The translations under genes and the position numbers were made by a program. 64,000 bases of DNA from IMG/VR virus record IMGVR_UViG_2061766007_002263; one strand, 5' to 3'. This DNA is from a virus. Taxonomy: Duplodnaviria; Caudoviricetes. Positions 1 to 49,436 of this stretch are shown piece by piece (the first letter of the stretch is position 1; the number at the start of each line of letters is the position of its first letter). Below the pieces are notes generated by a model, which was given only the letters and a program-made list of their open reading frames with translations, was not told where the DNA came from and did not search any database.

Positions 1-153
1 CCAAGGTGTATTAGGACAATATGGCGCATTTTCATACTGAATTTCCAATTCAAAGGAAACGTCAGAATATGGAATTTTGTGAACTGTTTTATACGTTTCA
101 CCCGCTTCCCAAGAGGGCTTCTTCAATATTTTAATAATTTCTGTCTTTTCCAT
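1..153 (-). CDS. hypothetical protein, runs off the window edge
   Basis: ATG at 153 (MEKTEIIKILKKPSWEAGE...), directly downstream of ORF 163-498. Confidence 0.6.
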   Translation of the reverse strand, partial: MEKTEIIKILKKPSWEAGETYKTVHKIPYSDVSFELEIQYENAPYCPNTPW

Positions 154-162
154 TTCTAACTC

Positions 163-498
163 TTACAAGTTGAAAACTACTTTCTTTTTCTTTCCACAAC
201 AGTTCTGCCGAAGTGATACATTATCTGCTCCGTACAACCAAAGGTTGTAGATTTCGTTATAATCACCGTCTGCATACATTTCTGCCAATGCACAGAATAC
301 ACGCTCACGGACAATTGAATCACCCACATCCATAAGGTCGTAAATGTCCTTTCCTTTTTTCATTCCGTTAAAGGCTTGTGAAAAAGTGAGCTTAGGATTG
401 ATTTTCGCACCAAGCTCGTCTGTCTTGTATGCTTTCATGTAGTAATCACGAACAAACGAAGTCTTTTTCCAAACTGGCTTTCCAGACCATTCTGCCAT
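163..498 (-). CDS. hypothetical early phage protein
   Basis: 111 aa ORF, AAGGAG RBS, promoter motif at 525-551. Confidence 0.8.
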   Translation of the reverse strand: MAEWSGKPVWKKTSFVRDYYMKAYKTDELGAKINPKLTFSQAFNGMKKGKDIYDLMDVGDSIVRERVFCALAEMYADGDYNEIYNLWLYGADNVSLRQNCCGKKKKVVFNL

Positions 499-732
499 AG
501 TATTTATCTCCTTATGGTATAATTATTATAACCTTACAAGATTTTTATCCTGGCAACTTAATACGCAAGTTCTTGATAGTTATCCTTAAAAATGTATCAT
601 AAAACACAAGTTTTTGCGTATTAAAAAAGCTGAGTTTTTAGCCTAACCCTTAATCTCTTTTTCCATAGTTTTCTCTTTATGGCTTATCTATTATAACCCT
701 GCCAGTCTTTTATCCTAGCAAGGTTATTTATC

Positions 733-1302
733 TTAAGCAAGACCTTCTTTTTCTCGCCAAGCCTTTTCTTTTTCTGCGTATTCTTTCTGACGAGTTATTT
801 CAGATTTGTATTGCCATTCCCAATTGTGTTCTTCGTCAGTCCAAGCGTGTCCGATTGTCTGTCCGTTGCTTCCACCCTCTTGACTGTTGTAGGAATAATT
901 GATAGACATTCCATAGCCAACATTTGGGCAAAGTTTAGAAAAGTCTTCTTCTGAACCATAGTAACCTTTCTTGTTACGCTTGTACCAAAAGTTTCCACCA
1001 AAATTGGTAATTCGCATTTCTTTCCAAGCGTTCCAAAGAATTGTAAACTTGCTTGCAAAGTCTTCGCTTTCGATTTCCAAGTAGTATTCGCCACGGCTTT
1101 CAATCCATTCATACTTAAACTTTAAGTCAATCTTGCTTTCCTTGCAAATCTGCGAAATTAACTGTGGAAGATTTTCAAGCATTTTCTGCTTGCCGATTTC
1201 AACACGCTTTTTACAGTCGTCACGGTAAGCGTCCATTAACTTGCACTGTTCCAAGCCGTAGTGTTCAATAGCCCACTCATCTTCTGCGTACTTATCTTTC
1301 AT
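733..1302 (-). CDS. hypothetical protein, paralog of 5319-5948
   Basis: 189 aa; shared GGSNGxx(I/L)GHA motif. Confidence 0.8.
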   Translation of the reverse strand: MKDKYAEDEWAIEHYGLEQCKLMDAYRDDCKKRVEIGKQKMLENLPQLISQICKESKIDLKFKYEWIESRGEYYLEIESEDFASKFTILWNAWKEMRITNFGGNFWYKRNKKGYYGSEEDFSKLCPNVGYGMSINYSYNSQEGGSNGQTIGHAWTDEEHNWEWQYKSEITRQKEYAEKEKAWREKEGLA

Positions 1303-1510
1303 AAGTACCTACCTTGTCGCCATATTCATAGCCCATAATACCGTGTTCAACATTACGAGCATCGTCAAATGGACTGTTTGCAACAATTTCTGCAACTGCT
1401 ATCGGCATACCATCTTTTTGGTCTGTCCTAGCGTGAATCCTTACACCGTACTGCTTGCAGAGTTTGTCAAGTTTATCAACAAATCTGTCAAGTTTTACAC
1501 TGTCTTTCAT
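1292..1510 (-). CDS. hypothetical protein
   Basis: 72 aa, AGGAG RBS, promoter at 1535. Confidence 0.75.
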   Translation of the reverse strand: MKDSVKLDRFVDKLDKLCKQYGVRIHARTDQKDGMPIAVAEIVANSPFDDARNVEHGIMGYEYGDKVGTYER

Positions 1511-1596
1511 AGTTTAATCTCCTACATAACCAAGATTATAACCTTGTTGCTTCTTTATCCTGTATGTATAAATTTCGAGTTCAAATCTAAATTTAA

Positions 1597-1622
1597 AAAT
1601 CCCTAGAAAAAACTAGGGATTT
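1597..1622 (-). terminator. intrinsic terminator
   Basis: AAATCCCTAG/CTAGGGATTT inverted repeat just after the stop of 1630-2268. Confidence 0.7.
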
Positions 1623-1629
1623 CTAGTGG

Positions 1630-2268
1630 TTATCTGTTATGATTTCTCCAACTGCCTTTTTGAATAATCAGTTCTTTCGGCTTATTTTTAATAAAAACAC
1701 GGTAACACTTGCCGAATTTATCAGCTTCTACATAATCGATGTCGTTCAGTTTTACGGTCTTGAAACCTTTATACTTATTGACGATTGAAAGCACTTTTGG
1801 TGTTGCCTTGAATTTATACATTTTATTTATGCCAGAACTCTCACAACGGTCATAGTGTTTTTTGTCGGCGGCGGTAACAATCTTCAAGTCTTTTACATAG
1901 GAAGTATTGTTGTCCATTTCGTAAACACTATGCTTTCTGTCAAGCAAGTAGTACGTCTGCTTGTTGACAAGTTTACCAGAGCCGTTCCAAAGCGTATCAC
2001 CACGAACATTTTCAAAATCTTCTTCGACAATGTTCAAAGTATCAACTGTCGAATATAGCTTCAAGTCCGCACCACTTATATAATAAACGCTCATGTAGAT
2101 TCTACGAACAGTCTTTCCACCGTCTTTTGTCAAATCCATTTTGCCGAATTCGCCTTGTGTGCCTCTCATTGTCTTTGCATTAAAAACATAGCCTTCCACA
2201 AGCAATTCAGAAAGTCTATCAGTATAAGACTTGACGATTTCCTTTAACTTGATAATTCCATTTTCCAT
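1630..2268 (-). CDS. hypothetical protein (start revised to MENGIIK)
   Basis: AAGGAG RBS before ATG 2268; the track start lies upstream of the promoter motif. Confidence 0.75.
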   Translation of the reverse strand: MENGIIKLKEIVKSYTDRLSELLVEGYVFNAKTMRGTQGEFGKMDLTKDGGKTVRRIYMSVYYISGADLKLYSTVDTLNIVEEDFENVRGDTLWNGSGKLVNKQTYYLLDRKHSVYEMDNNTSYVKDLKIVTAADKKHYDRCESSGINKMYKFKATPKVLSIVNKYKGFKTVKLNDIDYVEADKFGKCYRVFIKNKPKELIIQKGSWRNHNR

Positions 2269-2361
2269 AGTGTTTTGTCTCCTTGCACTTACAAAATTAT
2301 AACCTTGCAGAGTTTCTATCCTGTTAGTACGAATCACTTCCGAAGATAACTTTACCATTTG

Positions 2362-2622
2362 TCATTTTTTCAAAAGGTCAAGAACTTCGTCACGAACTTC
2401 TGAAACAGAATCTTCCAATTTATCTACGTCAAGTTTTACACCAAAGATTTCTGCAAGTGTATTAAAGGCATCACGAACCTTGTCACAAAGTTCATCTTCA
2501 TAAGCCAAGCAAGTTCCGACCAAAAAATACTTCTTTCCGTCTTTTTCAACGGTCATTGTTTCACACTTGCGAAGTTCACTTGCCTTGTTCTGCATCATTT
2601 CTCTTACAGTAAGTTTTTTCAT
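2362..2622 (-). CDS. hypothetical protein (start revised to MKKLTV)
   Basis: AAGGAG RBS, promoter at 2647. Confidence 0.75.
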   Translation of the reverse strand: MKKLTVREMMQNKASELRKCETMTVEKDGKKYFLVGTCLAYEDELCDKVRDAFNTLAEIFGVKLDVDKLEDSVSEVRDEVLDLLKK

Positions 2623-2686
2623 AGGTATCTCCTTTTCAATAAAAAAATTATAACCTTGCAAGATTTCTATCCTGCAAGGTTATTTC

Positions 2687-2872
2687 TTACCACTGACCAC
2701 TTAAATCTTCATAAGTGTCGTTATCTTCAACGCTTACTGTTTCAATGTATTCCGCATTATTCTCCAACGCGGCGGAAGAAAAAATCGGGATTTCTTCAAA
2801 CTTTGCTTTGACCTCGCCCAGGTCCTTTCCTTCAATCACGATTTCACTTTTGAATGTTATGCGGACTTTCAT
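2687..2872 (-). CDS. hypothetical protein
   Basis: 61 aa, GAGG RBS, start overlaps the upstream stop. Confidence 0.7.
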   Translation of the reverse strand: MKVRITFKSEIVIEGKDLGEVKAKFEEIPIFSSAALENNAEYIETVSVEDNDTYEDLSGQW

Positions 2873-2955
2873 TAAAACCTCACTACTTCAAATCGGTCAT
2901 AAACATCGGCACCTGCAAAAGCGTAGCCGTCATAGTTTTCTTTAATTACAAACAT
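2872..2955 (-). CDS. 27-aa microprotein MFVIKENYDGYAFAGADVYDRFEVVRF (below track cutoff)
   Basis: AAGGA RBS; fills the gap exactly and its stop is coupled to the next start. Confidence 0.5.
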   Translation of the reverse strand: MFVIKENYDGYAFAGADVYDRFEVVRF

Positions 2956-2969
2956 AGCGATTCTTCCTT

Positions 2970-3221
2970 TTATACTCTTCCAACTTCTTTTTCGTATACG
3001 CTACAAGCACCCATAACAAAATTATGAAGTTTTGTAAAGTCCACGCTGTCGTTGCTTACAATAAAAGACGGAACTGGACAAAGCAAATCGTCATCGACAG
3101 TCCAAAGATAGAACTTCTTATCATTGTCGTCTGATTGTTTCCGTCTGACTTCGTATTCCCAATTATTGTCGCTTACAAAGTGAATGGTAAGGTTAAGAAG
3201 GAAAATGTCCTTTTTGTCCAT
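2970..3221 (-). CDS. hypothetical protein (start revised to MDKKD)
   Basis: AAGGAG RBS, promoter at 3249. Confidence 0.7.
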   Translation of the reverse strand: MDKKDIFLLNLTIHFVSDNNWEYEVRRKQSDDNDKKFYLWTVDDDLLCPVPSFIVSNDSVDFTKLHNFVMGACSVYEKEVGRV

Positions 3222-3296
3222 TGTCGTTAATCTCCTTATGTTTTTGTAATTATAGCCTTGCATTAGGCTTATCCTGACACAAGGCTATTTTTCAGA

Positions 3297-3593
3297 TTAA
3301 TTAAGTCCGTTTACGTCTTCTCTTTGGTCGATACCGACTACGGAAATTGCACTACGAACCTCATCATAGAATTCTTCGGTAGTACAAATCGTCTCAAAAT
3401 AATGAATGTTTTTGTTTACAGTCATATACATATCGTCTTGTTCCTCAACAGAAAGGTCGTCCCAAGTAATCTTACCTTCCATAATTTCGTCAAAATCACG
3501 GATAAGGTCGTCCTTATCAAAAACGACATAATCCATTACGTCCTCAAATACTTCTGCTGGCTCTCCGTTTTCAAAGTCAATCGTAATTTTCAT
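3297..3593 (-). CDS. acidic hypothetical protein
   Basis: 98 aa, very D/E-rich, GGAG RBS, promoter at 3621. Confidence 0.75.
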   Translation of the reverse strand: MKITIDFENGEPAEVFEDVMDYVVFDKDDLIRDFDEIMEGKITWDDLSVEEQDDMYMTVNKNIHYFETICTTEEFYDEVRSAISVVGIDQREDVNGLN

Positions 3594-3657
3594 TGTTTCT
3601 TTTCTCCCTACGATATTTTTATTATAGTCCTATTAAGTTTGTATCCTTTAAAAACTC

Positions 3658-3963
3658 TCAACAATAAAAGTCAAACGCTCCGATACCACCATGTTCGTCT
3701 ATGATTGTATTGATTTTCTGGTCAAAGGTCATGTCTTTTTTCCGGTCCTTGTCGCTCTTAAACACATTGTAGCCAAAATCCTCAATTGTGGCGCATACCA
3801 GATAGCTTATGTTACTAATGTCCGTTTCTATCGGCTCTGGACGCTTTAAAACGGCATATGCAATCCAGTCCATGTCGCACCATTCTGATTTCGGCATATT
3901 TTCGTATTCCTCAACAGAATTAAGAGGTGTCCACTGTCCATAAGCGTTTACTGTCATTGACAT
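3658..3963 (-). CDS. hypothetical protein
   Basis: 101 aa, AGGAG RBS. Confidence 0.75.
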   Translation of the reverse strand: MSMTVNAYGQWTPLNSVEEYENMPKSEWCDMDWIAYAVLKRPEPIETDISNISYLVCATIEDFGYNVFKSDKDRKKDMTFDQKINTIIDEHGGIGAFDFYC

Positions 3964-4073
3964 GGTTTTAATCTCCTATCGCTATTTAAGCTTATCTTTT
4001 AATTTCTGCATATTTTCATTACTTTTAAAAAATTATAGTCTTACAAGGTGTCTATCCTTGCAAGACTTAATCT

Positions 4074-4688
4074 TTACTCCGCCGCAACCCCAATCACATA
4101 GTATTTGTGAATCTCACGGACAACCGTTCCGTTCTTTACGGATTTGGGCATAGATTTTACATTTTTGGAAACAATACTGAACTCTGCCTTTTCTTCCGAA
4201 CCAGATACAAGAACTTTTGACTTTTCCCACCAAGCGAATCCATTATTTTCAAGAACATAGTTTTTCGCTTTTTTGTCCGCAAGCTCTTGTGTCTTTTCAG
4301 TACTTAATGTTTTCGTATGTCCGTTATTGTCTTCCGTGTAGACAGAAAACATTGTCTGATAGACTGGCTTATTGTTACTAGAACGCTTTGTTTTTTTCAC
4401 AGACCAGACTTCATAGCCGACAATACCCAAGTCCATCGCTTCGCAAGACCATTTCGCCACATTATTACATACGTTGTCAATCATTTCGGCATACTTTTTC
4501 TGTCTCATGAAGTTTTTCAGATTTGTTTCAGTACACTTGTCAAAGACTTTATGTATCTTTTTCAAGTTTGAGCAAGTGTTCCAATCACCACTGTAAATAT
4601 CGTTACTGTCAGACCATGAATCAATTTCATTTGAGTTTAAAAAGCCTTTTGGCAGTTTAACCATTTTAGTAATAATACGAGCACCCAT
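4074..4688 (-). CDS. hypothetical protein
   Basis: 204 aa, AAGGAG RBS, promoter at 4717. Confidence 0.8.
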   Translation of the reverse strand: MGARIITKMVKLPKGFLNSNEIDSWSDSNDIYSGDWNTCSNLKKIHKVFDKCTETNLKNFMRQKKYAEMIDNVCNNVAKWSCEAMDLGIVGYEVWSVKKTKRSSNNKPVYQTMFSVYTEDNNGHTKTLSTEKTQELADKKAKNYVLENNGFAWWEKSKVLVSGSEEKAEFSIVSKNVKSMPKSVKNGTVVREIHKYYVIGVAAE

Positions 4689-4931
4689 AGTACTTTATCT
4701 CCTTATGTCCTCATGGATTATATAGTTATTAAGCTTTTATCCTCGAAACGCTTGCAAACTTACCACGACAATTATCTTTTAGTGAAACGTTGTACGCTCC
4801 GTTAAACCCTAAGTTGTAGACTTCACCGTAGTTATTGTTGGTATAATCTTGCAAAGACTTTATTCCCCAAGAAAAAAAACTCCGTCAAACCTTGTAGAAA
4901 GTCTGACGGTTTATGTGTAGCAAAAAAATCC

Positions 4932-5204
4932 TTACCAACGATAGATTTCTTTCAAAGGTCCTTTACGCTTCTTTGTCTGTCCGAAATGCGTTACATGATA
5001 ATAGCCACACTCTTTACAGTAGTATTTCCTTTTAGGCTTGTCATTGCCCCTTCCGATATGCGAGGAAGTCCGATGTCCTTTCAATCTTGCGAGCTGTTCA
5101 CCTGCTTCACGCTCCGTAAGGCACTGTTTTCCACATACGCAATACCGTACCTTAGACTGACCGAAATCTCCAATAAAATCTTTCATAGTCCTATACTTTG
5201 CCAA
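4932..5204 (-). CDS. small Zn-binding protein
   Basis: CVCGK...YYCKECGYYH motifs; TTG start, exact start uncertain. Confidence 0.65.
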   Translation of the reverse strand: MAKYRTMKDFIGDFGQSKVRYCVCGKQCLTEREAGEQLARLKGHRTSSHIGRGNDKPKRKYYCKECGYYHVTHFGQTKKRKGPLKEIYRW

Positions 5205-5318
5205 GATAACCGATTGTTACTATGACCACCTGAATCTATCTCAGCTTGCAAAATAAAGGCAGTCAAGCCTACTTAAAAAAACTTTGTGAACCACCGAAAA
5301 AAATCGGTGGAATTATCA

Positions 5319-5948
5319 CTATTTTTTGTTAGGAATTTCAGAATCCCAAGCCAACTGACGCTCGAAATCTTCCTTGTTGCGTTCAAGCCGTCTTGCTTTT
5401 TCAGTTTGGATTTCCCAACCCTTTTCTTTAGAAAAGAAAGCGTGTCCGAGTTCTATGCCGTTAGAACCACCACCCCACATTTTAAGTGAATAGTAGATGT
5501 CGATTGAAAATCCGATTTCCGCGTCTTTTGAAGTATCAATGTCCTCGTATTCCCAACCACCATAGTACTTTTGTTTTGCGCCTTTCTTACCAGAGAAACG
5601 AATCCAAGTATAACCGTAGTTAAAGTTTCCGACAGTGATTTCCTCAAATGCCGCGTTAAGATAAAGGCTTTCTTTGTTAAGATTCTGGCTTTCATAGCTT
5701 ATGCCCAAACCATTTCTGCCGTGAACGACTTTGAAATCAAAGTTACAATTAAACCCAAAAGTCTTGTTGATAAGGTCGAAAAGACCTCTCATGATTCCGC
5801 TTGAATAATCCGCAATTTTTGCGAACAACTCTTCTTCACGGTGGATTTGTCCGTTATACCAGTCAACAAATGAATCCGTCCATTCTTTACCGTTCTTTTT
5901 AAGAAGGCCAGCATAAATAGAGCCGCTTTTTTCGATTCTTAATGTCAT
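5319..5948 (-). CDS. hypothetical protein, paralog of 733-1302
   Basis: 209 aa; GGGSNGIELGHA; promoter at 5977. Confidence 0.8.
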   Translation of the reverse strand: MTLRIEKSGSIYAGLLKKNGKEWTDSFVDWYNGQIHREEELFAKIADYSSGIMRGLFDLINKTFGFNCNFDFKVVHGRNGLGISYESQNLNKESLYLNAAFEEITVGNFNYGYTWIRFSGKKGAKQKYYGGWEYEDIDTSKDAEIGFSIDIYYSLKMWGGGSNGIELGHAFFSKEKGWEIQTEKARRLERNKEDFERQLAWDSEIPNKK

Positions 5949-6033
5949 TGTATCATAATCTCCTTACGGTTTACTTATTATAGTCTTACTTCAAGGCTAT
6001 CCTTAAAAGCCATAGCCTTGAAGTTTTCAAGGA

Positions 6034-6471
6034 TTATTCCTCAAATGGAATTCCATTATCAGAACAGTATTCCTGAATCGTTTTCAACGGAACACGGATA
6101 AGTTCCGACTGCCGCTCATTTATGTCAACGAGCCTTTGATACAAGCTGCTCTTGTCAGTAGCTAAAGGCTGGTCAACATAACTGCGCTCAACAATCTTCC
6201 AGCCCTTAATGTAATAAGTTCCGTTATCGTCTCCGTTTGCAAGGTTCGAATAAACGTCTACCCCAAGCGAAAGACCATCTCCGAAAAAATTCCCTATGAC
6301 AGTCGTAAGATATGCCCAACCATAGTCGTCACCCGTAGGCTCACGGAAACCTTTCATTTCACAATACGCAAGGAACGCTTCGATACTCTCAACACCACCG
6401 TTCCAGTGAACATAAATGCCGACACCTTTTTCCCTTTCAATCGCACTTGCGATAATAGCCCGGTTTCCCAT
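6034..6471 (-). CDS. phage protein of the MGNRA...YxHWxG type, function unknown
   Basis: 145 aa, AAGGAG RBS. Confidence 0.75.
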   Translation of the reverse strand: MGNRAIIASAIEREKGVGIYVHWNGGVESIEAFLAYCEMKGFREPTGDDYGWAYLTTVIGNFFGDGLSLGVDVYSNLANGDDNGTYYIKGWKIVERSYVDQPLATDKSSLYQRLVDINERQSELIRVPLKTIQEYCSDNGIPFEE

Positions 6472-6488
6472 AAAATTGCTCCTTTTTA

Positions 6489-6767
6489 TTAAGAAGGTAT
6501 CTTAATACCTTCCAGATAACCTTTATTTTCCCATTCATTCGGAATGTCGTACTCTTCAAGTTCTTTTGCTTCAAGCACACGGTCAAGATAAACAACCGTC
6601 AATGTGTTGGACAACAATACGGAACGTATGACCCCGACATCTTTAGGAAGCGTCATGGGTCCCAGTCCATGTTTCAGTACATACTGGAATCCTTTTCCGG
6701 CTTTCTTGCCGTAAGAAATACGGTCTGGGTCACCATTACCTTTCCTATCTACAAGCACAAATGCCAT
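6489..6767 (-). CDS. hypothetical protein, possibly DarA_C-like domain
   Basis: YVLKHGLGPMTLPK...YLDRVLEAKELEEYDI resembles that domain pattern. Confidence 0.55.
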   Translation of the reverse strand: MAFVLVDRKGNGDPDRISYGKKAGKGFQYVLKHGLGPMTLPKDVGVIRSVLLSNTLTVVYLDRVLEAKELEEYDIPNEWENKGYLEGIKIPS

Positions 6768-6783
6768 TTTCTCGTTTCCTCTT

Positions 6784-7059
6784 TTAGCTTATACGGCAGA
6801 ACTGAATCTCGCCCTCGAACAATGCGCTGTCGAAAAGTGCCTGTGATTCTTCAGAAGTGTATTCGTTGCAGAAGTCTTCGAACTCTTTTTCTCCCACCAA
6901 ATCAAAAAACTTTGTTGCATAATCATAGCTTGTGGCGAAGACTACCTCGTAGGATTCCTCGTCATTCTCGACCACGAAAATAAACTGCGCAAGTTTATGG
7001 CAGACTGGTATTTCCTTATAGTCCCAAGTATTGACAAGCTCCTTATAGCTTTTTTCCAT
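6784..7059 (-). CDS. acidic hypothetical protein
   Basis: 91 aa, AAGGAG RBS, promoter at 7087. Confidence 0.75.
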   Translation of the reverse strand: MEKSYKELVNTWDYKEIPVCHKLAQFIFVVENDEESYEVVFATSYDYATKFFDLVGEKEFEDFCNEYTSEESQALFDSALFEGEIQFCRIS

Positions 7060-7121
7060 AGTTGTTTATCTCCTTACATTCTACAGATTATTCTCTTGTC
7101 TAGCGTCTATCCTTCAAAAAT

Positions 7122-7144
7122 AAGGTGGCTGTTTGAGCCACCTT
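7122..7144 (-). terminator. intrinsic terminator
   Basis: AAGGTGGCT/AGCCACCTT stem after the ATPase stop, T-rich tail on minus strand. Confidence 0.7.
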
Positions 7145-7153
7145 TATAATTAT

Positions 7154-8116
7154 TTAATTGTAGTAATCAAAAGTTTCACCACAAAGCTGAAGCGCGGTGG
7201 ACACATGGCTTTCAGTAATCCCGTTGCTCTCATGCATATCCGCGATTGTTCTCGCAACTTTTATGATTCCACGTTTTACAAGAGCGGAAATACCTTTTAT
7301 TTCACAATAGCTTTCGAGCATGGTTGTTTCGCTCTTTCCCATAGGACAATAGGTTGACACCTCATCCGGCGTAAGGTCAGCGTTCAGTTTGCCCTGCCGC
7401 TTATACTGGAACTCCTGTCCTTTTTTAATCAGCTCACGCAGCTCTTCCAGTGTCCGTTCAGGCTCAAATGTCGTATGCGTCTCATAGAGCATTACACGTA
7501 TCTCCATACGGTCAAGAAGCGGTCCGCTGAACTTCTTCCAATACTGTTCTATTGAACGTGCTGAGCAAATACAAATACGGTCAGAGCCATAATTTCCACA
7601 TGGGCAAGGACTTGTAACCATAGCCAATTGAAAATCGGCTGGATACACATAACATTTACCCGCACGGCTCAACGTAACTGATTTTGTTTCCAGAGGAACA
7701 CGAAGCATTTGAAGAACAGACGTTCTGAATTCCGCCACTTCGTCAAGAAAAAGCATACCTTTATGCGCAAGGCTTATCTCACCCGGTTTGCAGTCGATGC
7801 CACCGCCGCACATACCTTCCAGAGAAGCAGTTTGATGCGGCATACGGAAAGGACGTGGTGTTTTCAAGTCGTCAGGACGTGGTATCCCCGCTACTTCGTA
7901 GATTTTATTGACTTCTTTCATCTCGTCTGCCGTAAGTTCCGGCATGAGCATAGGAAACATCGTAAACATCGCGGTCTTACCACAGCCAGGACTTCCTACG
8001 GCTATAATGTTGTGCCGACCACATACGGCTACAGCCATAGCATACTTCAGAAAATCAATGTTTTTTCCCTTAAAGGAATCAAACTTCTTATCATCAGCTT
8101 TCTCGAACTCAACCAT
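7154..8116 (-). CDS. comM: YifB/ComM-family Mg-chelatase-like AAA+ ATPase, N-terminally truncated
   Basis: GSPGCGKT Walker A, RPFRMPHQTAS, PGEISLAHKGMLFLDE, PCPCG, KFSGPLLDR, KVARTIAD. Confidence 0.85.
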   Translation of the reverse strand: MVEFEKADDKKFDSFKGKNIDFLKYAMAVAVCGRHNIIAVGSPGCGKTAMFTMFPMLMPELTADEMKEVNKIYEVAGIPRPDDLKTPRPFRMPHQTASLEGMCGGGIDCKPGEISLAHKGMLFLDEVAEFRTSVLQMLRVPLETKSVTLSRAGKCYVYPADFQLAMVTSPCPCGNYGSDRICICSARSIEQYWKKFSGPLLDRMEIRVMLYETHTTFEPERTLEELRELIKKGQEFQYKRQGKLNADLTPDEVSTYCPMGKSETTMLESYCEIKGISALVKRGIIKVARTIADMHESNGITESHVSTALQLCGETFDYYN

Positions 8117-8184
8117 AGTTTTTATCTCCCTATGTGTTTGATTATTATACTCTTGTAAATGTTCTATCCTTTAAGTAATTAAAA

Positions 8185-8213
8185 AAGTCGGCGGCTTGAA
8201 AAACCACCGACTT
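8185..8213 (-). terminator. intrinsic terminator
   Basis: AAGTCGGTGG/CCGCCGACTT stem followed by a T run on the minus strand. Confidence 0.7.
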
Positions 8214-8221
8214 GCTTAGTT

Positions 8222-8851
8222 TCAATCGTATAATTCGCTCATCTTGTATAAAGATTCAACCGAATTATTTGGGTCAAGAATCTTGCGTATCTTGGCAAGG
8301 TCTTTTTCTGGAATAGCACGGTACAACCATGAATGTCCGTATTGGTATGGCTTTCCGTTCACTTCGACCTCATACATTCCGTATGTTTTCAGAACTATGC
8401 AGTCAAGCGTATAGCCATGTATATCTCGTAAGCAATTTTCAATCCATTTCTTATAGTAATTGTCAGAATATCCGTACTCAATCCGCGCTTTTTCCCAAAG
8501 TGCTTTGGCATATTCATTGGCGATTGTTTCTCTTTCGTCCTCATGCTCTTTAAGGCACTTTTCCTGTTCCGGAGTACCTGCGTTCATGTCGTTAAGGTGG
8601 TACTTCTCCCACAAATCCTCAATCAAGTTATACAACTTATTATGCTTAAAATATGGCTTGACAGTATCCAAACACTGTCCGCCAGCATGGATATCAGTAT
8701 GTTTGGAATTCCAAACTTTACCAGATACAGTAAAAGCTGGTTTATCAGTGTCCGCGTTTTTCAGCGCAACCTCCAGATTCACGACATTAATCTTACGCCC
8801 TGTTTTATGGTAATCAATTTTTCCAAAATCAAGTGTTCTATACAAATCCAT
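8222..8851 (-). CDS. conserved-looking phage hypothetical protein
   Basis: 209 aa; GGQCLD, HLNDMNAGT, YQYGHSW motifs; promoter at 8874. Confidence 0.8.
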   Translation of the reverse strand: MDLYRTLDFGKIDYHKTGRKINVVNLEVALKNADTDKPAFTVSGKVWNSKHTDIHAGGQCLDTVKPYFKHNKLYNLIEDLWEKYHLNDMNAGTPEQEKCLKEHEDERETIANEYAKALWEKARIEYGYSDNYYKKWIENCLRDIHGYTLDCIVLKTYGMYEVEVNGKPYQYGHSWLYRAIPEKDLAKIRKILDPNNSVESLYKMSELYD

Positions 8852-8918
8852 AATTAAAACCTCTTTTACAAGAATTATAATCTTGCGAGTAATTTATCCT
8901 GTAACAGTTTGTTTTTAG

Positions 8919-10311
8919 GAGACTTTCACGTTCTAAACCTTTGGGGCTTTAGCCTCTAAGATACAGAACGTGTAATATATTTTAGGAACTTTACTATAAT
9001 TTTCCTAAAAGAAAATATTCCTTTTTCCACTAATTAGAGTATGAGTAAGAACGAAAATATCCAAAAAGGATTATTAGAATTAAAAGCAAGAAGAAAGACT
9101 CAGCAAATCAAAGTCTATGAATTGAAGATAAATGTACATTCAACCTCAAAGGAGGATTTTGCAAAATTCAATTCTATGTTCGTTCAAGCAAAATGGGTTG
9201 CAAATGATTGTATTGCTTCTGAGGATATTTTCACTTACAAATATCAAGAACATAAAAAGGTTATCAATTTTGACAAAGATGGAAACAAAGTAGAAAGAAC
9301 AATCAATTTGAATTCCGGTATACACCAAGACATTATTCGTCAAATTAAACAGGACATTGTGAACCTTTCAAAGAAGAAAAAGAAAGGTGGAAAAGTAGGA
9401 AGGCTAAAATTCAAAAGACAAGTAAATACTATCAATTTGAGAGATTTGAAAGTATTGAATTCGAAAACAGTTTCAATCCCAGGCTTCAAAAACTTAAAAG
9501 TGTACGGACTTGAACAATTCATCAGTATTCCTGAATTTGAAATTGCAAGTCCAAAATTGGTAAAAAAAGCTTCAGGAATATACCTAAAAGTTCCTGTATG
9601 TATTCCAAAAGAAACTTCCAAAAGAAAATCCACAAACAAAGAGGTTGGGTTGGATTTTGGAATCAAGGATAACATAACTACATCTGATGGAGAGAAATTC
9701 AACTGTAGTGTGCAAGAATCTGAGTATCTAAAATTTCTACAACGTAAGTTGCACAAGAAACAAAAGAACTCAAAGCGATACCATAAATGTTTGAATCAAC
9801 TCCAAAAAGAGTATGAACATCTCACTAACAAAAAGAATGACGATTCTAACAAATTAATTTCCTACCTTTTGAAGAGCTATGATGTCATCTATTTTCAGGA
9901 CGAGCAAATTTCAAAATGGAGAAAGTTCAACAAAGGATTTGCTAGAAACATCCAACATTCCTATTTGGGAAGAGTGAAAGCAAAGCTTGTGGAGTTACAA
10001 AAGACAAGTAGAAGTTTTGAAATTTCAAAATGGTCTCCCTCTACAAAATTCTGTCCTCAATGTGGTTCTCTAAATGATGGAATCACACTTTCAGACAGAA
10101 TTTTCAAATGTTCATGTGGATATCAATTTGATAGAGATGTTCATGCAGCAAAAAACGTAAAATTGTTTGGCTCAACTAAAAGGGCTGAGTGGTTGGAACA
10201 ACCCCCCGTGGACTCATTGGTCACTACTGCACTAGAATTTTCTGGGACAGCAAATCAAGAGGTTGAAGCGAAAAACGAAGCTGTAGTGTCTTCAGACATT
10301 CGGTAGTTCAC
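8919..10311 (+). mobile_element. non-autonomous IS200/IS605-family (tnpB-only, IS1341-like) element
   Basis: Left end after TTTAG with nested hairpin (CACGTTCT...CTTTAG loop...AGAACGTG); right-end hairpin ending GTTCAC; no tnpA; joining the flanks restores a stop codon. Confidence 0.8.
9041..10306 (+). CDS. tnpB: TnpB RNA-guided nuclease family protein
   Basis: RuvC-I VGLDFG, RuvC-II region IYFQDE, Zn finger CPQC...CSC, RuvC-III DRDVHAAKN. Confidence 0.9.
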   Translation: MSKNENIQKGLLELKARRKTQQIKVYELKINVHSTSKEDFAKFNSMFVQAKWVANDCIASEDIFTYKYQEHKKVINFDKDGNKVERTINLNSGIHQDIIRQIKQDIVNLSKKKKKGGKVGRLKFKRQVNTINLRDLKVLNSKTVSIPGFKNLKVYGLEQFISIPEFEIASPKLVKKASGIYLKVPVCIPKETSKRKSTNKEVGLDFGIKDNITTSDGEKFNCSVQESEYLKFLQRKLHKKQKNSKRYHKCLNQLQKEYEHLTNKKNDDSNKLISYLLKSYDVIYFQDEQISKWRKFNKGFARNIQHSYLGRVKAKLVELQKTSRSFEISKWSPSTKFCPQCGSLNDGITLSDRIFKCSCGYQFDRDVHAAKNVKLFGSTKRAEWLEQPPVDSLVTTALEFSGTANQEVEAKNEAVVSSDIR

Positions 10312-10331
10312 CGTCCGTAAACCTTTTTAGC
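10150..10331 (+). ncRNA. predicted omega/reRNA of TnpB; guide = 10312 onward (5' boundary uncertain)
   Basis: Inferred from the established rule that the scaffold overlaps the tnpB 3' end/right end and the guide is the 3' flank. Confidence 0.5.
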
Positions 10332-10841
10332 ATAATGCAGATTCACACTGTATCCTTTGCTCAAAAGCTTCTCGTGCAAAGTCTGTGGGTCGTCATATTT
10401 ATGATTGTTATAATACGCTTCGCCACGTTTCGTGAGTTTTTTCACCTCGAAACAGTTTACTCCGTCATGATGATACGAATGTATGTTGAATACGCCTTTG
10501 TCGTCAAATATTTTAGTCTTATAGCAAAAACAGACGTTAAGACCATTAAAGCCTTTGAATACCCGACCCCCATAATGCCTTCCGTCCCAGTTTCCTATAA
10601 AACCAGTAATAATATACGTGCTGCCGTCATCAAAGAAATTCTTAAGCAGAGACGATTCCGAATCCCAAGATGTTTCATTGGAAATACGAATTTCCTCTTG
10701 AATTTCCTCGTCAGTCGGTTCCCAATCGGTTTCCTCTGGATATTCTTCAAGATGTCGCTCGATACAATACTTCTCCGCGTCATCCCAATCATAACCGTCA
10801 TGGTCATTATAAATTATTGTTTCCGTTTTTTTCTTTCCCAT
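10308..10841 (-). CDS. hypothetical protein; stop codon supplied by the IS right end
   Basis: 177 aa; WDG and HHDG motifs; promoter at 10870. Confidence 0.8.
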   Translation of the reverse strand: MGKKKTETIIYNDHDGYDWDDAEKYCIERHLEEYPEETDWEPTDEEIQEEIRISNETSWDSESSLLKNFFDDGSTYIITGFIGNWDGRHYGGRVFKGFNGLNVCFCYKTKIFDDKGVFNIHSYHHDGVNCFEVKKLTKRGEAYYNNHKYDDPQTLHEKLLSKGYSVNLHYAKKVYGR

Positions 10842-10942
10842 AGAAATTCCTTTTGAATGTATCTTAAGTATTATAACCTTTCAAATCGTTTATCCTTAGA
10901 AAAACAAAAAGGGCGGAATCAACCGCCCCTTTTCAAGTATTG

Positions 10943-11416
10943 TTAAAACTCCTCTGGATTTATAAATTCAATTTCTGTCGTACCAGACTTTACCTTACCG
11001 AAAAGGTCACCAAAATAGAAAATACCAATTTCACCCGGCTCTATTTCTACTTTAGTACCTTTTTCATTGGAGCAGACGTCTCCCACTGTCGCAAAAATCG
11101 GCTCGTCAGAAGCATTCTTAACATAAAGGTAATCACTGAACCAATTTCCAAAATAGTCTTCCATAAAATTAAGATTCTTTTTTGGAAACAAATCTATAGG
11201 TTCCGAATCGTCAAAATACTGAAAGTTTTCTTTATCAAACTCTCTTACTTCTTTTTTCAAATCGTCAGCCGTTTCGATTCTGGCAAGACGCTCCACAACT
11301 TCCTGACCATAACCTATTACGTCATTACCAACTCTGACGTACATATCACCGTTGAACTCATTAGAAGTTAGAATCTTCCGTTCTTTAGTAACTAATACAA
11401 ACTTACCTCTTGTCAT
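10943..11416 (-). CDS. hypothetical protein
   Basis: 157 aa, AAGGAG RBS, promoter at 11443. Confidence 0.8.
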   Translation of the reverse strand: MTRGKFVLVTKERKILTSNEFNGDMYVRVGNDVIGYGQEVVERLARIETADDLKKEVREFDKENFQYFDDSEPIDLFPKKNLNFMEDYFGNWFSDYLYVKNASDEPIFATVGDVCSNEKGTKVEIEPGEIGIFYFGDLFGKVKSGTTEIEFINPEEF

Positions 11417-11462
11417 AGCATTAATCTCCTTTCGCTTTTTCTATTATAATGTTGAAGTGGTT

Positions 11463-11747
11463 CTATCCTTCCAAAGAATCTTGCACTTCCAATTCAACCC
11501 GCGCAAACGGAAGATTCGTTTTCAAATCCCAGAACTCATAATAATCTGGAAATGCGGAACAATCTACGTCAATGTCTCCAAGAAGTTCTTTTTTAAGGAA
11601 TCCTTTGTCAGCGCAAGCGTTCAGAATGTCGTTAGCAGAAGCGTCCTCACTTACTTCTATAGGATTGCCGGTAAACTTGCCGACATTGTTCACTTCAAAA
11701 TCATCCTCATTTCCCCAAACGTCATAGACACAAAAAATGTATTTCAC
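11463..11747 (-). CDS. acidic hypothetical protein
   Basis: 94 aa, GTG start, AAGGAG RBS, promoter at 11772. Confidence 0.75.
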   Translation of the reverse strand: MKYIFCVYDVWGNEDDFEVNNVGKFTGNPIEVSEDASANDILNACADKGFLKKELLGDIDVDCSAFPDYYEFWDLKTNLPFARVELEVQDSLEG

Positions 11748-11834
11748 GAACTAATCTCCTTTAGAGTTTTTATTATAGTGTTAAGAACATTCTATCCTTC
11801 GAAAATTGAACATGGCTCTAAAAAGGGTTTTTAT

Positions 11835-11887
11835 AGTAAGGTGGCAAGAAAAATGCCACATCTTTAGTGTGGCGTATGAATTGCTAC
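11835..11887 (+). mobile_element. orphan IS200/IS605 left-end-like relic
   Basis: TTTAT followed by GTGGCAA..TGCCACA-TCTTTAG-TGTGGCG..TTGCTAC nested hairpin. Confidence 0.5.
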
Positions 11888-12009
11888 ATCTAATAGTTAT
11901 GAAGCCCCGAAAAAAAAAATCCATTAAATTGCCAGAAAAAAAACGCATTAAAACCTTAGAAAAAAATCTTAAAGGATAACTCAAAAAAATCAGTATAATA
12001 TACTTTTAC

Positions 12010-12417
12010 ATGAATGAAACATTAGAGAAAAGCATTTCCAAAGTATCAAGAAGATTTTGTGAAATCTTCTATTGCAAAGAAAAAGAGCCGCCCGTAATGG
12101 AAGACGGATTCGTTACCTTATCATTTGTACCAGTCAACGACATTACAGACGCTACCATTAAATTACAAATATGTAAAAAAGGTGATTTTTACTTGCGCTT
12201 AGATTGTGGAACTCATTCCTACATGGCGTTTGCTGGTTGGACGGATGATTCGGACAACGATGAGACTATCCAAAAAATGGTTGCAGGAATTTTTGATTTT
12301 TTCTATAATTATACTACAGATGAAAACATCATAGGGCTGGTTCAATGGATAAAATGCACTGGTGCCTCGCCAAGTCTGATTTCTGCGATAAAAAAACTTT
12401 TAGAAAACATTTTTTAA
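12010..12417 (+). CDS. hypothetical protein
   Basis: 135 aa, 10 nt after the TATAAT of promoter 11973. Confidence 0.7.
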   Translation: MNETLEKSISKVSRRFCEIFYCKEKEPPVMEDGFVTLSFVPVNDITDATIKLQICKKGDFYLRLDCGTHSYMAFAGWTDDSDNDETIQKMVAGIFDFFYNYTTDENIIGLVQWIKCTGASPSLISAIKKLLENIF

Positions 12418-12472
12418 TTGAAATATTTAATATCTCCATAGATTTTAAAATACTTGAAGGAGAAAATAATTT

Positions 12473-12898
12473 ATGAGTAAAAAAACTGATTATCTTACTG
12501 CGGACGAAGCAATCGGATTTCTTTCGTTGCTGAATAATTCAGCAGTTCAGAATTACATTAAAGAGCATGTCGAACTCGGAAATGTAAAAGATACTTTGGA
12601 AATAATCCCATGCAAAGAAAGCGATGCGATTCCTGAGACATACGCGGCACAAGGTGAGACGAACTCATGCATTATGTATGATTCTTCATCCTCCGACTAT
12701 ACAGTGGATGATGCCGAGAAAGCAATAGACGAGCTGTTGAAATATCTCAAGAAAGTTAAAGCACCAGTAAAGCTTACATCGCACGAGGATAACTTCTACT
12801 TCCTTGAGACGAATTATACCAAGATTCTGGACTGGGAATCGACATACACAAAAAGCTCCGAAAAAAAAACTAAGGATAACGTAGAAAAAACACTATAG
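12473..12898 (+). CDS. hypothetical protein
   Basis: 141 aa, AAGGAG RBS. Confidence 0.75.
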   Translation: MSKKTDYLTADEAIGFLSLLNNSAVQNYIKEHVELGNVKDTLEIIPCKESDAIPETYAAQGETNSCIMYDSSSSDYTVDDAEKAIDELLKYLKKVKAPVKLTSHEDNFYFLETNYTKILDWESTYTKSSEKKTKDNVEKTL

Positions 12899-12929
12899 TA
12901 TTCCTACCGTAAAGGAGTATGGGGAAAAC

Positions 12930-13991
12930 ATGAAGAAAAAAAATATCGCTATTTGTCTGATTTTACTGAGCCTCTGTGCGTCCGTGTTCGCAAAGCACGT
13001 TGTCTTGGAACGTGACGTAAACAACCACGTGGAAAGATACTACGACAAGACATGGTTCTCTGAGCAAGGCAAAGTAAGGATACATCTGAACGAGTTCTCT
13101 ACTGCCGATGGCAAGCGCAAGTTCGGATGGGCTTATGCCATAGAATCGGACATAGTAGACACGGTAGCCGACAGCTCGCTCATTGCGCTCACTGGCGAGG
13201 ACGAATGCCCATTAATGTACTACGTCGCAAACGGCAAATTTTACATAGGATACGTCTGGACTGGAAGCTATGAGACCGAGATTATTCCTGTACACTCGTT
13301 CTATGAGTTTGACGAAAAAGACGGCTACGATATATATTTCATGTTCGCATACGCTTCAGCGGTAGATTATACCCTTACATACGGAAACAGTATCCATTTC
13401 AGAGAAGTCTACGACAACAAGGGCGTATCCAAGTTCACCACTGGGGAAACACCGGAACTCTCGTTCCGCACGTCCGATTTCCCCGACTACGTAAAATACT
13501 CGGAATACAGAGTTACTAACGGATGTATCAACGGCAACAAGGTCTGGCTTGACGGCGAGTGGCGTGACATAACAAGAAATCCTTATAGAGACCAGTTCGG
13601 AATCCTCTGGGAGTCGTTCACCGACATCACTGGTTTCCACGTGCATTGTACCGAAAGCAGATACAAAGACCGCTGGTTTGAGCCGGCTGTGTTAACTTGT
13701 ACATTCCGTACCGTAGACATGGTGCTCGTAAGGGAAATGTCGAACGGCAGCAGTGAAACCGCCGGAAAAAAAATCTTTGAGAACCTGAAAAAATATGGGC
13801 TGTGGAAATCACTGGAATGTATGTACCTTGGAGACGGAACTACCGTAGGTGAATGGGGTCCGAACGAAGGTATAATCACATGCTGGTATGAGCCGTTCAT
13901 GCGGTACGGAAACATGCAGGACGGATTGAAAGACGTGGTTCAGAAAGACCAGCTCATAGATTTCCAGAAAGTCTCCGTAATAAGAAACTAA
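12930..13991 (+). CDS. secreted/periplasmic protein with Sec signal peptide
   Basis: MKKKNIAICLILLSLCASVFA|KH; 353 aa; promoter at 12873. Confidence 0.8.
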   Translation: MKKKNIAICLILLSLCASVFAKHVVLERDVNNHVERYYDKTWFSEQGKVRIHLNEFSTADGKRKFGWAYAIESDIVDTVADSSLIALTGEDECPLMYYVANGKFYIGYVWTGSYETEIIPVHSFYEFDEKDGYDIYFMFAYASAVDYTLTYGNSIHFREVYDNKGVSKFTTGETPELSFRTSDFPDYVKYSEYRVTNGCINGNKVWLDGEWRDITRNPYRDQFGILWESFTDITGFHVHCTESRYKDRWFEPAVLTCTFRTVDMVLVREMSNGSSETAGKKIFENLKKYGLWKSLECMYLGDGTTVGEWGPNEGIITCWYEPFMRYGNMQDGLKDVVQKDQLIDFQKVSVIRN

Positions 13992-19620: not shown

Positions 19621-19786
19621 TCTTTTTACTCCATATATCTGGCATTTTAGCCACACGAGGTTTTTAATGCGTATTTTCCGGATAAAAAGACATCTATCCC
19701 CTTGTCCAAAAACTACATACTATAATTAGTTAGTGGTAATTCAATTCAAAACTTTAATATCTAAAGATATAAAGGAGAAAAATCTT

Positions 19787-21256
19787 TTGAAATGTCTCGC
19801 ATGCGGTAAAGATTGTAAAAACAAGTTTTGTCATACATGTATGATAATCAAATCAAAAAAGCATTTCTCAGACGACGAGCTTATACAGTTCAAAAAGCTC
19901 AAAGAATCAAAGATATCAAGCGTAAACGAGCTCAACAACAAGCTTTTTCAAAAGAATACCGTAATAAAGTTCAATTGCATAAAATGTGGCAAAGAATATT
20001 CCGGTCTATATCGTAACATGAAAAACAAAACTGAGCTTCTGTGTGCGCAGTGCGAGCTTGAGAAAGCCAACATGAACAAATATGGCGTGAAAAATGTTTT
20101 TCAGACTGAATCATGCAAATCAAAGATACGCGAGTCAGTAAAAAACAAATACGGAGTCGAGTGTTACCTGCAAACAGACGAAGCAAGAAAAGCAAGGAAA
20201 CGAGTCGATATAGACCACATGAAAGAACGCACCGACAATACGCTCAATCAATACTGCTCCAAGATAGAATATGACGAAACATACAATGTACGTATCAAAG
20301 ACGACTCAGGCATGCTGCATTATCAGAAAATAAACTGCACGTGCGCGTCTTGTGGAAAACAATATATTACGAATGTAAGGGTTCTACAAAGATGCCCTGC
20401 TTGTTTCCCTGAAGATTGGATGAACGGTACGTCCAAACTTGAAAAGTTTATCTACGAATACATATCCGGCATAAGCCCATACCCCGTAATACATAACGCA
20501 TTCGATGTATTGAAAAACAAAGAGCTCGACATCTACATACCGGACATTAACCTCGCATTTGAAGTTGACGGAGATTACTGGCATGGATGCAAATCAACCG
20601 ACAAACAAGTTTTCAACGATATAAAGAATCATTCCGGCGACAAGCAGAAAGAATGCTATAAGAAAGGCATCCGGCTCATAACAATAAAGGAGTGTGATTT
20701 CAGGAACCGACCCGAAGTATTCAAAAGGTTTATAAATGATTTGGTGCTGCCACGAAGAAAAATATACGCGAGGCAATGCAGCATTTACCAGATTGATACA
20801 AAAACCGCAAGGGATTTCTGCGAATATTACCATGTGAACGGCTACAGACAAGGTTCTGAAAAGTATGGATTATTCTATAACAATGAGCTGATATGCGTCG
20901 CCGTATTCGGAAAACATCCTAAGCACCAATACGAATGCATGCGATTATGCTACAAGACCGGCTACGACATAACCGGCGGATGGGCTAAAATTGTCAAGCA
21001 TTTTGGAAAACCTTTCATACACTACGTGAACCTTATGTATTTCATGGGCGAAGACAAAACAGGCATAGGGTACAGATTTAGTAAAGGCGACAGGACTCTA
21101 TCCAGGAACACATTACAAAAGCATACACAGCTTTATAAGTATTGCAAGGACATAAACCCGGATTTCTCGGACGTACAGAACTGCATTCATAACGGTTTCC
21201 TCGCTATATTCGACTGTGGAAACGACATAAGATTCTATAACCAGAGCAAGAATTAA
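19787..21256 (+). CDS. Hef-like free-standing homing endonuclease (Zn ribbons, KYGV repeats, PD-(D/E)XK-type nuclease)
   Basis: CxxC pairs, KYGVKNVFQ, ELDIYIP...FEVDGDYWH, RKIYARQC domain; AAGGAG RBS before TTG 19787. Confidence 0.7.
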   Translation: MKCLACGKDCKNKFCHTCMIIKSKKHFSDDELIQFKKLKESKISSVNELNNKLFQKNTVIKFNCIKCGKEYSGLYRNMKNKTELLCAQCELEKANMNKYGVKNVFQTESCKSKIRESVKNKYGVECYLQTDEARKARKRVDIDHMKERTDNTLNQYCSKIEYDETYNVRIKDDSGMLHYQKINCTCASCGKQYITNVRVLQRCPACFPEDWMNGTSKLEKFIYEYISGISPYPVIHNAFDVLKNKELDIYIPDINLAFEVDGDYWHGCKSTDKQVFNDIKNHSGDKQKECYKKGIRLITIKECDFRNRPEVFKRFINDLVLPRRKIYARQCSIYQIDTKTARDFCEYYHVNGYRQGSEKYGLFYNNELICVAVFGKHPKHQYECMRLCYKTGYDITGGWAKIVKHFGKPFIHYVNLMYFMGEDKTGIGYRFSKGDRTLSRNTLQKHTQLYKYCKDINPDFSDVQNCIHNGFLAIFDCGNDIRFYNQSKN

Positions 21257-39442: not shown

Positions 39443-39523
39443 ATGTATCAATTAGAAGCTTAAAATAGAAAACGGCGAACAACACCGTTTTTCATGGCTG
39501 CTCACCGTTTTCATTAAATCTCA

Positions 39524-48863: not shown

Positions 48864-49436
48864 ATGAAATGCAAAGACTACTTGTTCAAAATGCATCATG
48901 GACTTCACATCACTTACGACGATGACGACCTCATAAAAGAAATTTCATCCGAAGGAGGAGGACTGCCTTTCCGTGTCCGCGCCGACAACAGATATACCGT
49001 TACCGACGAGGAATATAAAGCCTTCGAAAAAAATGCCGGGGTCATCATGAACAACGGTCTTCCATTTCCAAACGCCAACGGAACAAGCGGTCCGCAAGGT
49101 CATCGCAATACTTGGGACGGATGCCAGTTTGACAGCGTTTGGGAATATGCGTTCTACAGATACCACAAGGAAGTTGCCGGCAACGTAATCACACGCAACG
49201 AAACAGAATGGATTCCATATTTCGACGAAACCGGCAAACAGAGAAAATTCTACTTCGACTTTCTCGTGAACGCCGTTCCTTATGAAGTAAAAGGATTTTT
49301 CCGTCCGTCCGACATGGCGAAAATGCAGTCAACGTCTGGTCAGGTTACATTTGTATCGAAGCCAGATATACTTCCTATAATGAAAGAACTCGACAAACAA
49401 ATACCGGGATGGCGCAGCGACTGCATTTTCAACTGA
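48864..49436 (+). CDS. PD-(D/E)XK nuclease (TnsA-N/T4 gp4-like)
   Basis: FDSVWE...IPY...FYFDF...EVKG. Confidence 0.7.
   Translation: MKCKDYLFKMHHGLHITYDDDDLIKEISSEGGGLPFRVRADNRYTVTDEEYKAFEKNAGVIMNNGLPFPNANGTSGPQGHRNTWDGCQFDSVWEYAFYRYHKEVAGNVITRNETEWIPYFDETGKQRKFYFDFLVNAVPYEVKGFFRPSDMAKMQSTSGQVTFVSKPDILPIMKELDKQIPGWRSDCIFN

Follow-up and report, generated by a model that had tools for sequence, protein, structure and literature searches.

Which factor reads the putative promoters at the left end of the DNA studied here? The locus lies in a stretch of 64,000 nucleotides (nt) from a virus of the Caudoviricetes (Duplodnaviria; IMG/VR record IMGVR_UViG_2061766007_002263), analysed as a whole and called here the window. 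Between positions 525 and 12899, a two-block element, AGGATA-N15-TATAAT, stands in front of gene after gene. Phage-specific promoter classes are the way in which large phages take over the host polymerase, and to our knowledge few of them have been solved (T4 MotA/AsiA, SPO1 gp28/gp34, and the N4 and phiKZ polymerases). The reading that we favour, and regard as reasonably probable, is an early promoter specific to this phage lineage, used by the host polymerase together with a dedicated reader, which would also work as a recombination module resembling the promoter early stem-loops (PeSLs) of T4-like phages.

The element and its extent

Exact copies of AGGATA-N15-TATAAT number 16 in the window (dinucleotide shuffles gave a mean of 0.02 and a maximum of 1), and 18 copies are found when one mismatch is allowed, for a shuffle expectation of 0.44. 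Both additional copies are altered in the -10 box only (AATAAT at 7087 and TATAGT at 12873). Every exact copy has a spacer of 15, and none was found at spacers of 10-14 or 16-22. When the hexamers upstream of the 90 TATAAT sites were counted at every spacer, without assumptions, AGGATA at spacer 15 ranked first (n = 16), and the runners-up were shifted versions of AGGATA. All 18 copies are intergenic, lie within 525-12899 and have the orientation of the next gene, each facing a downstream start codon; 16 are on the - strand (525 to 11798) and two on the + strand (11973 and 12873), with the divergent point of the block near 11.9 kb.

A weight matrix built from the 18 sites and run over the 64 kb gave these sites 22-38 bits, and the next best position reached 11 bits. 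Since this is the level of shuffled sequence, there are no copies past 12.9 kb: the AGGATA class is all-or-none and ends there. The original prediction had listed these 18 copies (16 exact and two with a changed -10 box), their invariant 15-nt spacer, their orientation with the next gene and their absence beyond 13 kb, and each of these claims held at the same coordinates in the shuffle, spacer, start-codon and matrix analyses. Its (C)AAG(G/A)N before TATAAT was likewise recovered in the per-position counts.

The full element is larger than first described and reads T-N3-AGGATA-R-A-N8-Y-AAG-R-N-TATAAT, with 14 positions invariant or nearly so. A T stands four bases upstream of the box in 16 of the 18 aligned sites; AGGATA is present in 18/18, the following R in 17/18 and the next A in 14/18. 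Spacer positions 9-16 carry about 0 bits. Before the -10 box there is a Y, followed by A in all sites (position 17), A in 15/18 (18), G or C in 13 and 5 sites (19), R in 17/18 (20) and any base; the hexamer itself is TATAAT in 16/18 and has one change in two. AAG is a third conserved element of the promoter, beside the box and the -10. With a numbering that presumes a start about 7 nt past TATAAT, the T falls at -37, AGGATA(R)(A) at -33 to -26, AAG(R) at -17 to -14 and TATAAT at -12 to -7. In 15/18 sites the start codon lies 22-30 nt past TATAAT and has a ribosome site of the TAAGGAGAT type before it; the leaders are 16-23 nt long and carry a strong Shine-Dalgarno site. The exceptions are a 70-nt leader (4032), an ATG after 10 nt (11973, near-leaderless) and an open reading frame (ORF) of seven codons (690).

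This is not the layout of a housekeeping promoter. The would-be -35 positions read n-a-A-G-G-A, and no TTGACA-like hexamer lies 16-18 nt upstream in any of the 18 sites. An extended -10 of the TGn type is also absent, as positions 17-21 read A-A-G/C-R-N and the T of TGn (position 19) is found in 0/18. Sites of the form TTGACA-16/18-TATAAT are at or below chance (30 vs 40.6 in 1-16 kb, 34 vs 39.9 in the 64 kb), most TTGACA-type matches lie inside genes, and the AGGATA class is the only one in the window with a host-type -10 box. The absence of TTGACA at 16-18 nt and of TGn supports the non-canonical promoter that had been predicted, and we are highly confident that the sites form a promoter class distinct from that of sigma-A.

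Units, terminators and cargo of the block

Terminator-like hairpins are enriched in 1-16 kb (24 vs 10.7 in shuffles), and at about 10 of the 18 sites they lie just upstream of or over the promoter. A hairpin stands directly before the box at 1535, 7087, 8144, 10870 and 11772; at 2647 and 4032 the terminator stem encloses the box and the AAGG element, with the T-run after TATAAT; and the sites at 690, 3249 and 5977 lie within similar hairpins. The upstream gene ends 13-81 nt before the box in most cases. One upstream gene (11463-11747) stops in the TAG of the box and another (12473-12898) in the TAG of the variant -10 TATAGT. A role of the motif as a supplier of upstream stop codons was rejected, since it applies to one gene only, plus the one stop in the variant -10 box. 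Because the promoter adjoins or lies in the terminator of the preceding gene and is followed by a leader with a Shine-Dalgarno site, nearly every small gene of the block appears to be a transcription unit of its own. The units are listed below, with the gene or genes that each putative promoter is predicted to drive (lengths in amino acids, aa).

1..13991, block of some 23 small genes, most of them orphans, in 18 putative transcription units; continues past the left edge of the window
525..551, - strand, promoter, 37.3 bits; for 163-498 (111 aa)
690..716, - strand, promoter in a hairpin; downstream only a 7-codon ORF (MEKEIKG) and a T-rich stem (region 640-716)
1535..1561, - strand, promoter; for 1292-1510 (72 aa) and probably 733-1302 (189 aa)
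2296..2322, - strand, promoter; for 1630-2268 (212 aa)
2647..2673, - strand, promoter in a terminator with a 15-bp stem (2650-2683), T-run after TATAAT; for 2362-2622
3249..3275, - strand, promoter in a hairpin; for 2970-3221 and probably 2687-2872
3621..3647, - strand, promoter; for 3297-3593 (98 aa)
4032..4058, - strand, promoter in a terminator hairpin (4037-4067); 70-nt leader to 3658-3963
4717..4743, - strand, promoter; for 4074-4688 (204 aa)
4840..4866, - strand, degenerate copy (GGGAATA..CAAGATTATACC), 10.9 bits; behind an intact terminator (4882-4909), in the ORF-poor 4744-5318
5977..6003, - strand, promoter in a hairpin; for 5319-5948 (209 aa)
7087..7113, - strand, promoter with -10 AATAAT, behind a terminator (7122-7144); for 6784-7059, 6489-6767 and 6034-6471
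8144..8170, - strand, promoter behind a terminator (8185-8213); for the ComM/Mg-chelatase-like AAA+ gene 7154-8116
8874..8900, - strand, promoter; for 8222-8851 (209 aa)
10870..10896, - strand, promoter behind a terminator (10906-10933); for 10308-10841
11443..11469, - strand, promoter, its TAG the stop of 11463-11747; for 10943-11416
11772..11798, - strand, promoter, the rightmost on this strand; for 11463-11747 (GTG start)
11973..11999, + strand, divergent promoter, ATG 10 nt after TATAAT; for 12010-12417 and probably also 12473-12898
12873..12899, + strand, promoter with -10 TATAGT, its TAG the stop of 12473-12898; for 12930-13991 (353 aa)

The degenerate copy at 4840 is probably what is left of a decayed cassette. 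At 690, a copy of full strength stands before seven codons only; this may reflect a small RNA, a leader peptide or the remnant of a cassette since lost.

The cargo contains a single weak pair of paralogues (733-1302 and 5319-5948, 30% identity). Together with the uninformative spacer, this indicates that the motif is conserved by position-specific selection rather than by recent duplication. No Pfam or PHROG family could be assigned to the cargo proteins, except for the AAA+ protein, one PHROG of unknown function and a TnpB. For four window proteins tested against deposited phages no protein match was found, and the helicase gave distant matches only; Rfam had no match in 1-14.5 kb. Small, acidic products are numerous among the cargo, and a signal peptide is present in one protein. 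Blocks of early or host-takeover genes usually look like this, and the timing of expression would be early.

The protein with the signal peptide MKKKNIAICLILLSLCASVFA at its N-terminus is encoded by the last gene of the block (12930-13991, + strand, 353 aa) and could be a surface or superinfection-exclusion protein. The TnpB / IS605 OrfB-like gene (9029-10306, + strand, 421 aa) lies on the opposite strand between two cassettes. A late-type box, ACTAATTA, ends 4 nt before its ATG, as if the gene were wired to the late promoter class of the phage.

A second phage and exchange of cassettes

Apart from a second phage, no other arrays turned up when IMG/VR and a metagenome contig collection (JGI, ENA and others) were searched with parts of the motif. 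With an extended sub-pattern, the contig collection yielded 83 stretches, of which three came from one phage type, represented by contig Ga0326512_10000025 (130 kb; loci L194 and L162) and by a strain fragment (L131) that is 93-98% identical. In the 16.2 kb examined, this contig has 28 sites, all on one strand and with spacer 15, so that the spacer is invariant over 46 sites in both phages. Their consensus is ttnnC-AGGGTA-R-N8-Y-A-a-G-G-T-TATAAT, with AGGGTA in 26 sites and AGGATA in two, and most sites are followed by a start codon at a distance similar to or shorter than in the window. One orthologous promoter differs between the strains in having AGGGTA or AGGATA, and position 4 of the box thus tolerates either A or G.

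Proteins of the window had no match in the loci of the second phage at E <= 1e-3, and the sole nucleotide match was promoter to promoter. The promoter code has therefore been conserved between the two phages with the cargo wholly replaced. Two details of the second phage differ in style: several units in L194 and L162 have an ATG about 12 nt after TATAAT (leaderless), and its ribosome sites are rich in G (AAGGGGG), where the window has TAAGGAGAT.

Among the relatives recognised by their sheath protein, G002 and G003 have 70% and 64% sheath identity to the window phage and G004 has 40%. G002, the closest, contains two AGGGTAAT...TATAAT sites, one of which matches the variant consensus perfectly. 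G004 (74 kb) and G408 (109 kb) have no such array. A further relative, G409, is a 240-kb contig with 30% GC that has about 25 core genes in common with the window phage at 25-63% identity, and none of the window genes below 14 kb. Its GTAAC-N15-TATAC signal (contig 2974-3400, L209) was discarded as a coding tandem repeat of 69 bp. Three motif matches in a separate stretch, L099, were put down to chance in coding DNA of 28% GC. A TTACATATTAT-like box recurs before small genes of G409 (L209-L220), e.g. at about 53.5, 55.5, 61.6, 235.6 and 237.4 kb, and may be a promoter class of its own.

The two strains of the second phage record recombination at the boxes. L194 has an extra cassette (4497-5071) between two promoter copies. 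At this place L131 has a single hybrid promoter, with the upstream flank and CAGGGTA from one of the L194 copies and the spacer, -10 and gene from the other. The crossover lies within CAGGGTA and the net change is exactly one cassette. A second L194 cassette (7353-7722) has been exchanged for 190 unrelated bases, again between promoter copies. We consider it likely that the boxes mediate the exchange of cassettes, as is seen in the sister phage and would hold for the window phage too: the repeated boxes would double as crossover points through which cassettes are gained, lost and replaced, as at the PeSLs of T4-type phages.

PeSLs are composite terminator/promoter motifs of T4-like phages with the same recombination behaviour (PMC2839356, PMC4122927). 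In both systems a short conserved unit of terminator and early promoter flanks small variable genes, and close strains differ by insertions and deletions with their edges in the unit, here between L131 and L194. However, the promoter of a PeSL is an ordinary sigma-70 early promoter, whereas the upstream elements here are non-canonical; the two do not resemble each other in sequence, and this phage lineage is not T4-like. PeSL-type shuffling mediated by promoters, described so far in T4-like phages, is found here in an unrelated lineage. The terminators that precede or overlap the promoters, the one-base variant in a second phage and the recombination role of the box were not part of the original prediction.

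The reader of the box

Two conserved blocks at a rigid distance, a spacer that carries no information and a perfect TATAAT point to recognition of the sigma type by a bacterial polymerase. The host core RNA polymerase would read the -10 through region 2 of a sigma-70-family protein, and a dedicated specificity factor for AGGRTA and the AAG box would replace the -35 and TGn contacts of the housekeeping sigma. This factor may be a phage sigma with a sigma-A-like region 2 or a sigma-appropriation pair in the style of MotA/AsiA, encoded outside the window or carried in with the virion. A sigma is slightly favoured by the lack of variation in the spacer and by an AAG box that is not of the TGn type. 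Because the code was not found in other phages or bacteria in very large scans, we lean towards a reader specified by the phage lineage rather than by the host.

The closest known arrangement is that of the T4 middle promoters, where a MotA box centred at -30 lies 12+/-1 bp from a stringent sigma-70 -10 (PMC2988021) and sigma is appropriated by AsiA/MotA (PMC2988021, PMC6755090). Both systems combine a stringent, host-type -10 with an asymmetric box of about 9 bp in the place of the -35. The nAGGATARA of the window ends 13 nt before TATAAT, within the geometry of the MotA box, which supports the comparison with T4 middle promoters that had been drawn for AGGATA. The differences are several: the box is AGGATA(R)A / AGGRTA rather than (a/t)(a/t)(a/t)TGCTTtA, the spacer is invariant rather than variable by +/-1, and a conserved AAG is found where TGn would be. 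Moreover, the sites front apparently earliest, orphan genes and no replication genes, no member of the MotA or AsiA families was matched in the window, and the host is probably a Firmicute.

Phage SPO1 offers a different comparison: its host-takeover module packs small genes densely, many of them with a strong promoter of their own, and has strong ribosome sites. The gp28-dependent middle promoters of SPO1 have AGGAGA as -35 and TTTNTTT as -10, the former one base from AGGATA and the latter unlike TATAAT. During infection SPO1 moves from sigma-A to phage sigmas (PMC13401047). Its early promoters, in contrast with the sites described here, are canonical sigma-A promoters. The class II marbox and the 'sigma adaptation' of PafBC also resemble the element, in that a substitute for the -35 stands at a fixed distance from a good -10, here repeated before many early genes. 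However, AGGRTA has no known host regulon or binding protein, and sampled bacterial genomes show no enrichment.

The host is probably a Firmicute, as judged from the strong Shine-Dalgarno sites and from the nearest relatives of the TnpB, which are about 50% identical and come from one Clostridia and one Bacilli metagenome-assembled genome. The motif has 0 copies in these two genomes and 0-10 per genome, without an array, in 401 sampled Clostridia genomes. The alternative that the original prediction had named against itself, a motif that is simply the host housekeeping consensus, thus finds no support, but the exact-match count is a weak test, which makes this reading less probable and no more than that. 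The Clostridia instances that were checked for conservation between species comprised two pairs in coding DNA and one pair in a conserved sequence of unknown kind. On inspection, a DnaA box, an archaeal TATA/BRE pair and sigma-F, -G, -E, -K or -H promoters were discarded for a misfit of sequence or spacing. Literature searches on the motif returned nothing relevant.

Several points weigh against the reading that we favour. Among the ORFs of the window, Pfam, PHROG and PDB sequence searches revealed no sigma, MotA, AsiA or convincing DNA-binding family, in agreement with the earlier remark that no cognate factor is identifiable there. G409, with 76% assembled, has no AGGATA array or comparable cassette block, and no sigma or multisubunit RNA polymerase detectable by Pfam. 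The perfect TATAAT could equally belong to an alternative pathway of the host, and the host itself may use the motif, the search for such use having covered sampled genomes. Finally, there is a bootstrap problem if these are the first genes to be expressed, as a factor made by the phage must then be injected or made from promoters elsewhere. Further searches for the factor were also negative: the candidate proteins had no matches in the ESM atlas and PDB sequence searches, and no sigma was found with Pfam region 2 in G002-G004 or with region 2 or region 4 in G409.

Because of the bootstrap problem, a host factor and an injected factor stay alive as alternatives. In the first of these, an alternative sigma of the host, or an activator of class II type that replaces the -35 contact as MarA/SoxS do at the marbox or as PafBC does, would read the box, with no phage factor needed at time zero. 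This would remove the bootstrap problem for the seemingly first-expressed genes and would suit both the housekeeping consensus of the -10 and a single code that serves two phages with unrelated cargo; boxes of the AGGA type are also known at the -35 of Firmicutes sigma-H. We nevertheless find it unlikely, given that bacterial genomes and metagenome contigs had scattered single copies at most (a weak test), that the conserved bacterial instances checked were of the coding or unknown kinds just described, that spacing and -10 do not fit the sigma-H, -F, -E, -G and -K consensus, and that the spacer does not vary in 46 sites. Another alternative is a phage-encoded RNA polymerase, virion-borne or made early, that reads the whole element of about 32 bp. 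Several jumbo or crAss-like phages inject a polymerase of their own for the early genes. N4 does so as well (PMC4496689), and several large proteins of the window have no family assignment. Yet two blocks, an uninformative spacer and a textbook TATAAT are the signature of sigma-type recognition, and no RNA polymerase family was found in the window or in G409, which makes such an enzyme very improbable.

The box might instead be a site of shut-off. Ordinary host sigma-A promoters would then rely on their perfect -10, and AGGATA and AAG would be operators of a phage repressor that closes the early block. Large phages commonly shut off their early genes through repeated operators. The box also overlaps the core promoter, the place for a repressor to act, and at five sites it lies within an inverted repeat. 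We regard this as improbable: a -10 alone, with neither -35 nor TGn, is normally a poor promoter; the inverted repeats occur in only 5/18 sites and look like terminator stems followed by T-runs; and one asymmetric box whose distance from the -10 does not vary is typical of a reader bound to the polymerase. Even less room is left for sites that are not promoters at all, and that would mark recombination or cassette boundaries or belong to a terminator element containing TATAAT by chance. Crossovers in the box do occur and hairpins overlap some copies, but most copies have no overlapping hairpin, every copy shares the orientation of the next gene and keeps a fixed distance to its ribosome site and start codon, and homology alone predicts recombination at repeated promoters, as with PeSLs (PMC4122927). 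This last alternative seems extremely unlikely to us.

A lineage-specific promoter read by the host polymerase with a dedicated factor thus remains our preferred reading. With regard to the original prediction, the non-canonical class and the MotA-like geometry stood, while the promoter activity itself, the reading by a phage activator or sigma and the early timing are what we infer. A bolder version, which we find doubtful, is a phage without host-type promoters, with about 70 early genes on AGGRTA-N15-TATAAT with AAG at -17, readable only by a phage-supplied factor (a divergent sigma-like or MotA-like protein) that enters with the DNA or comes from a few pre-early genes. Redirection of the host polymerase would then begin in the first minute, with the boxes as drivers of cassette exchange between related phages. 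The clean consensus of about 24 bits gives a direct handle for the search for a new polymerase-redirecting factor. The box is placed like a MotA box and has a new sequence, with a one-base variant between two uncultured phages that have no early genes in common, and the motif permits the annotation of early genes in the lineage.

Other motifs and genes were noticed outside the AGGATA block. ACTAAWTA boxes stand just before structural and other genes (12 copies vs 6.4 expected), some of them only 3-5 nt before the ATG (leaderless).

ACTAAWTA boxes, - strand: 16027, 19723, 23173, 27408, 32372, 32438, 37499, 48381, 52738; + strand: 57627

Several replication-type genes have a GTTAATAT-like box in front of them (32684, 45024, 48808 and 61340). 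Three genes resemble homing endonucleases (HNH / DUF7487; 19733-21256, 38270-39451 and 48864-49436), one of them beside a multi-piece nrdD.

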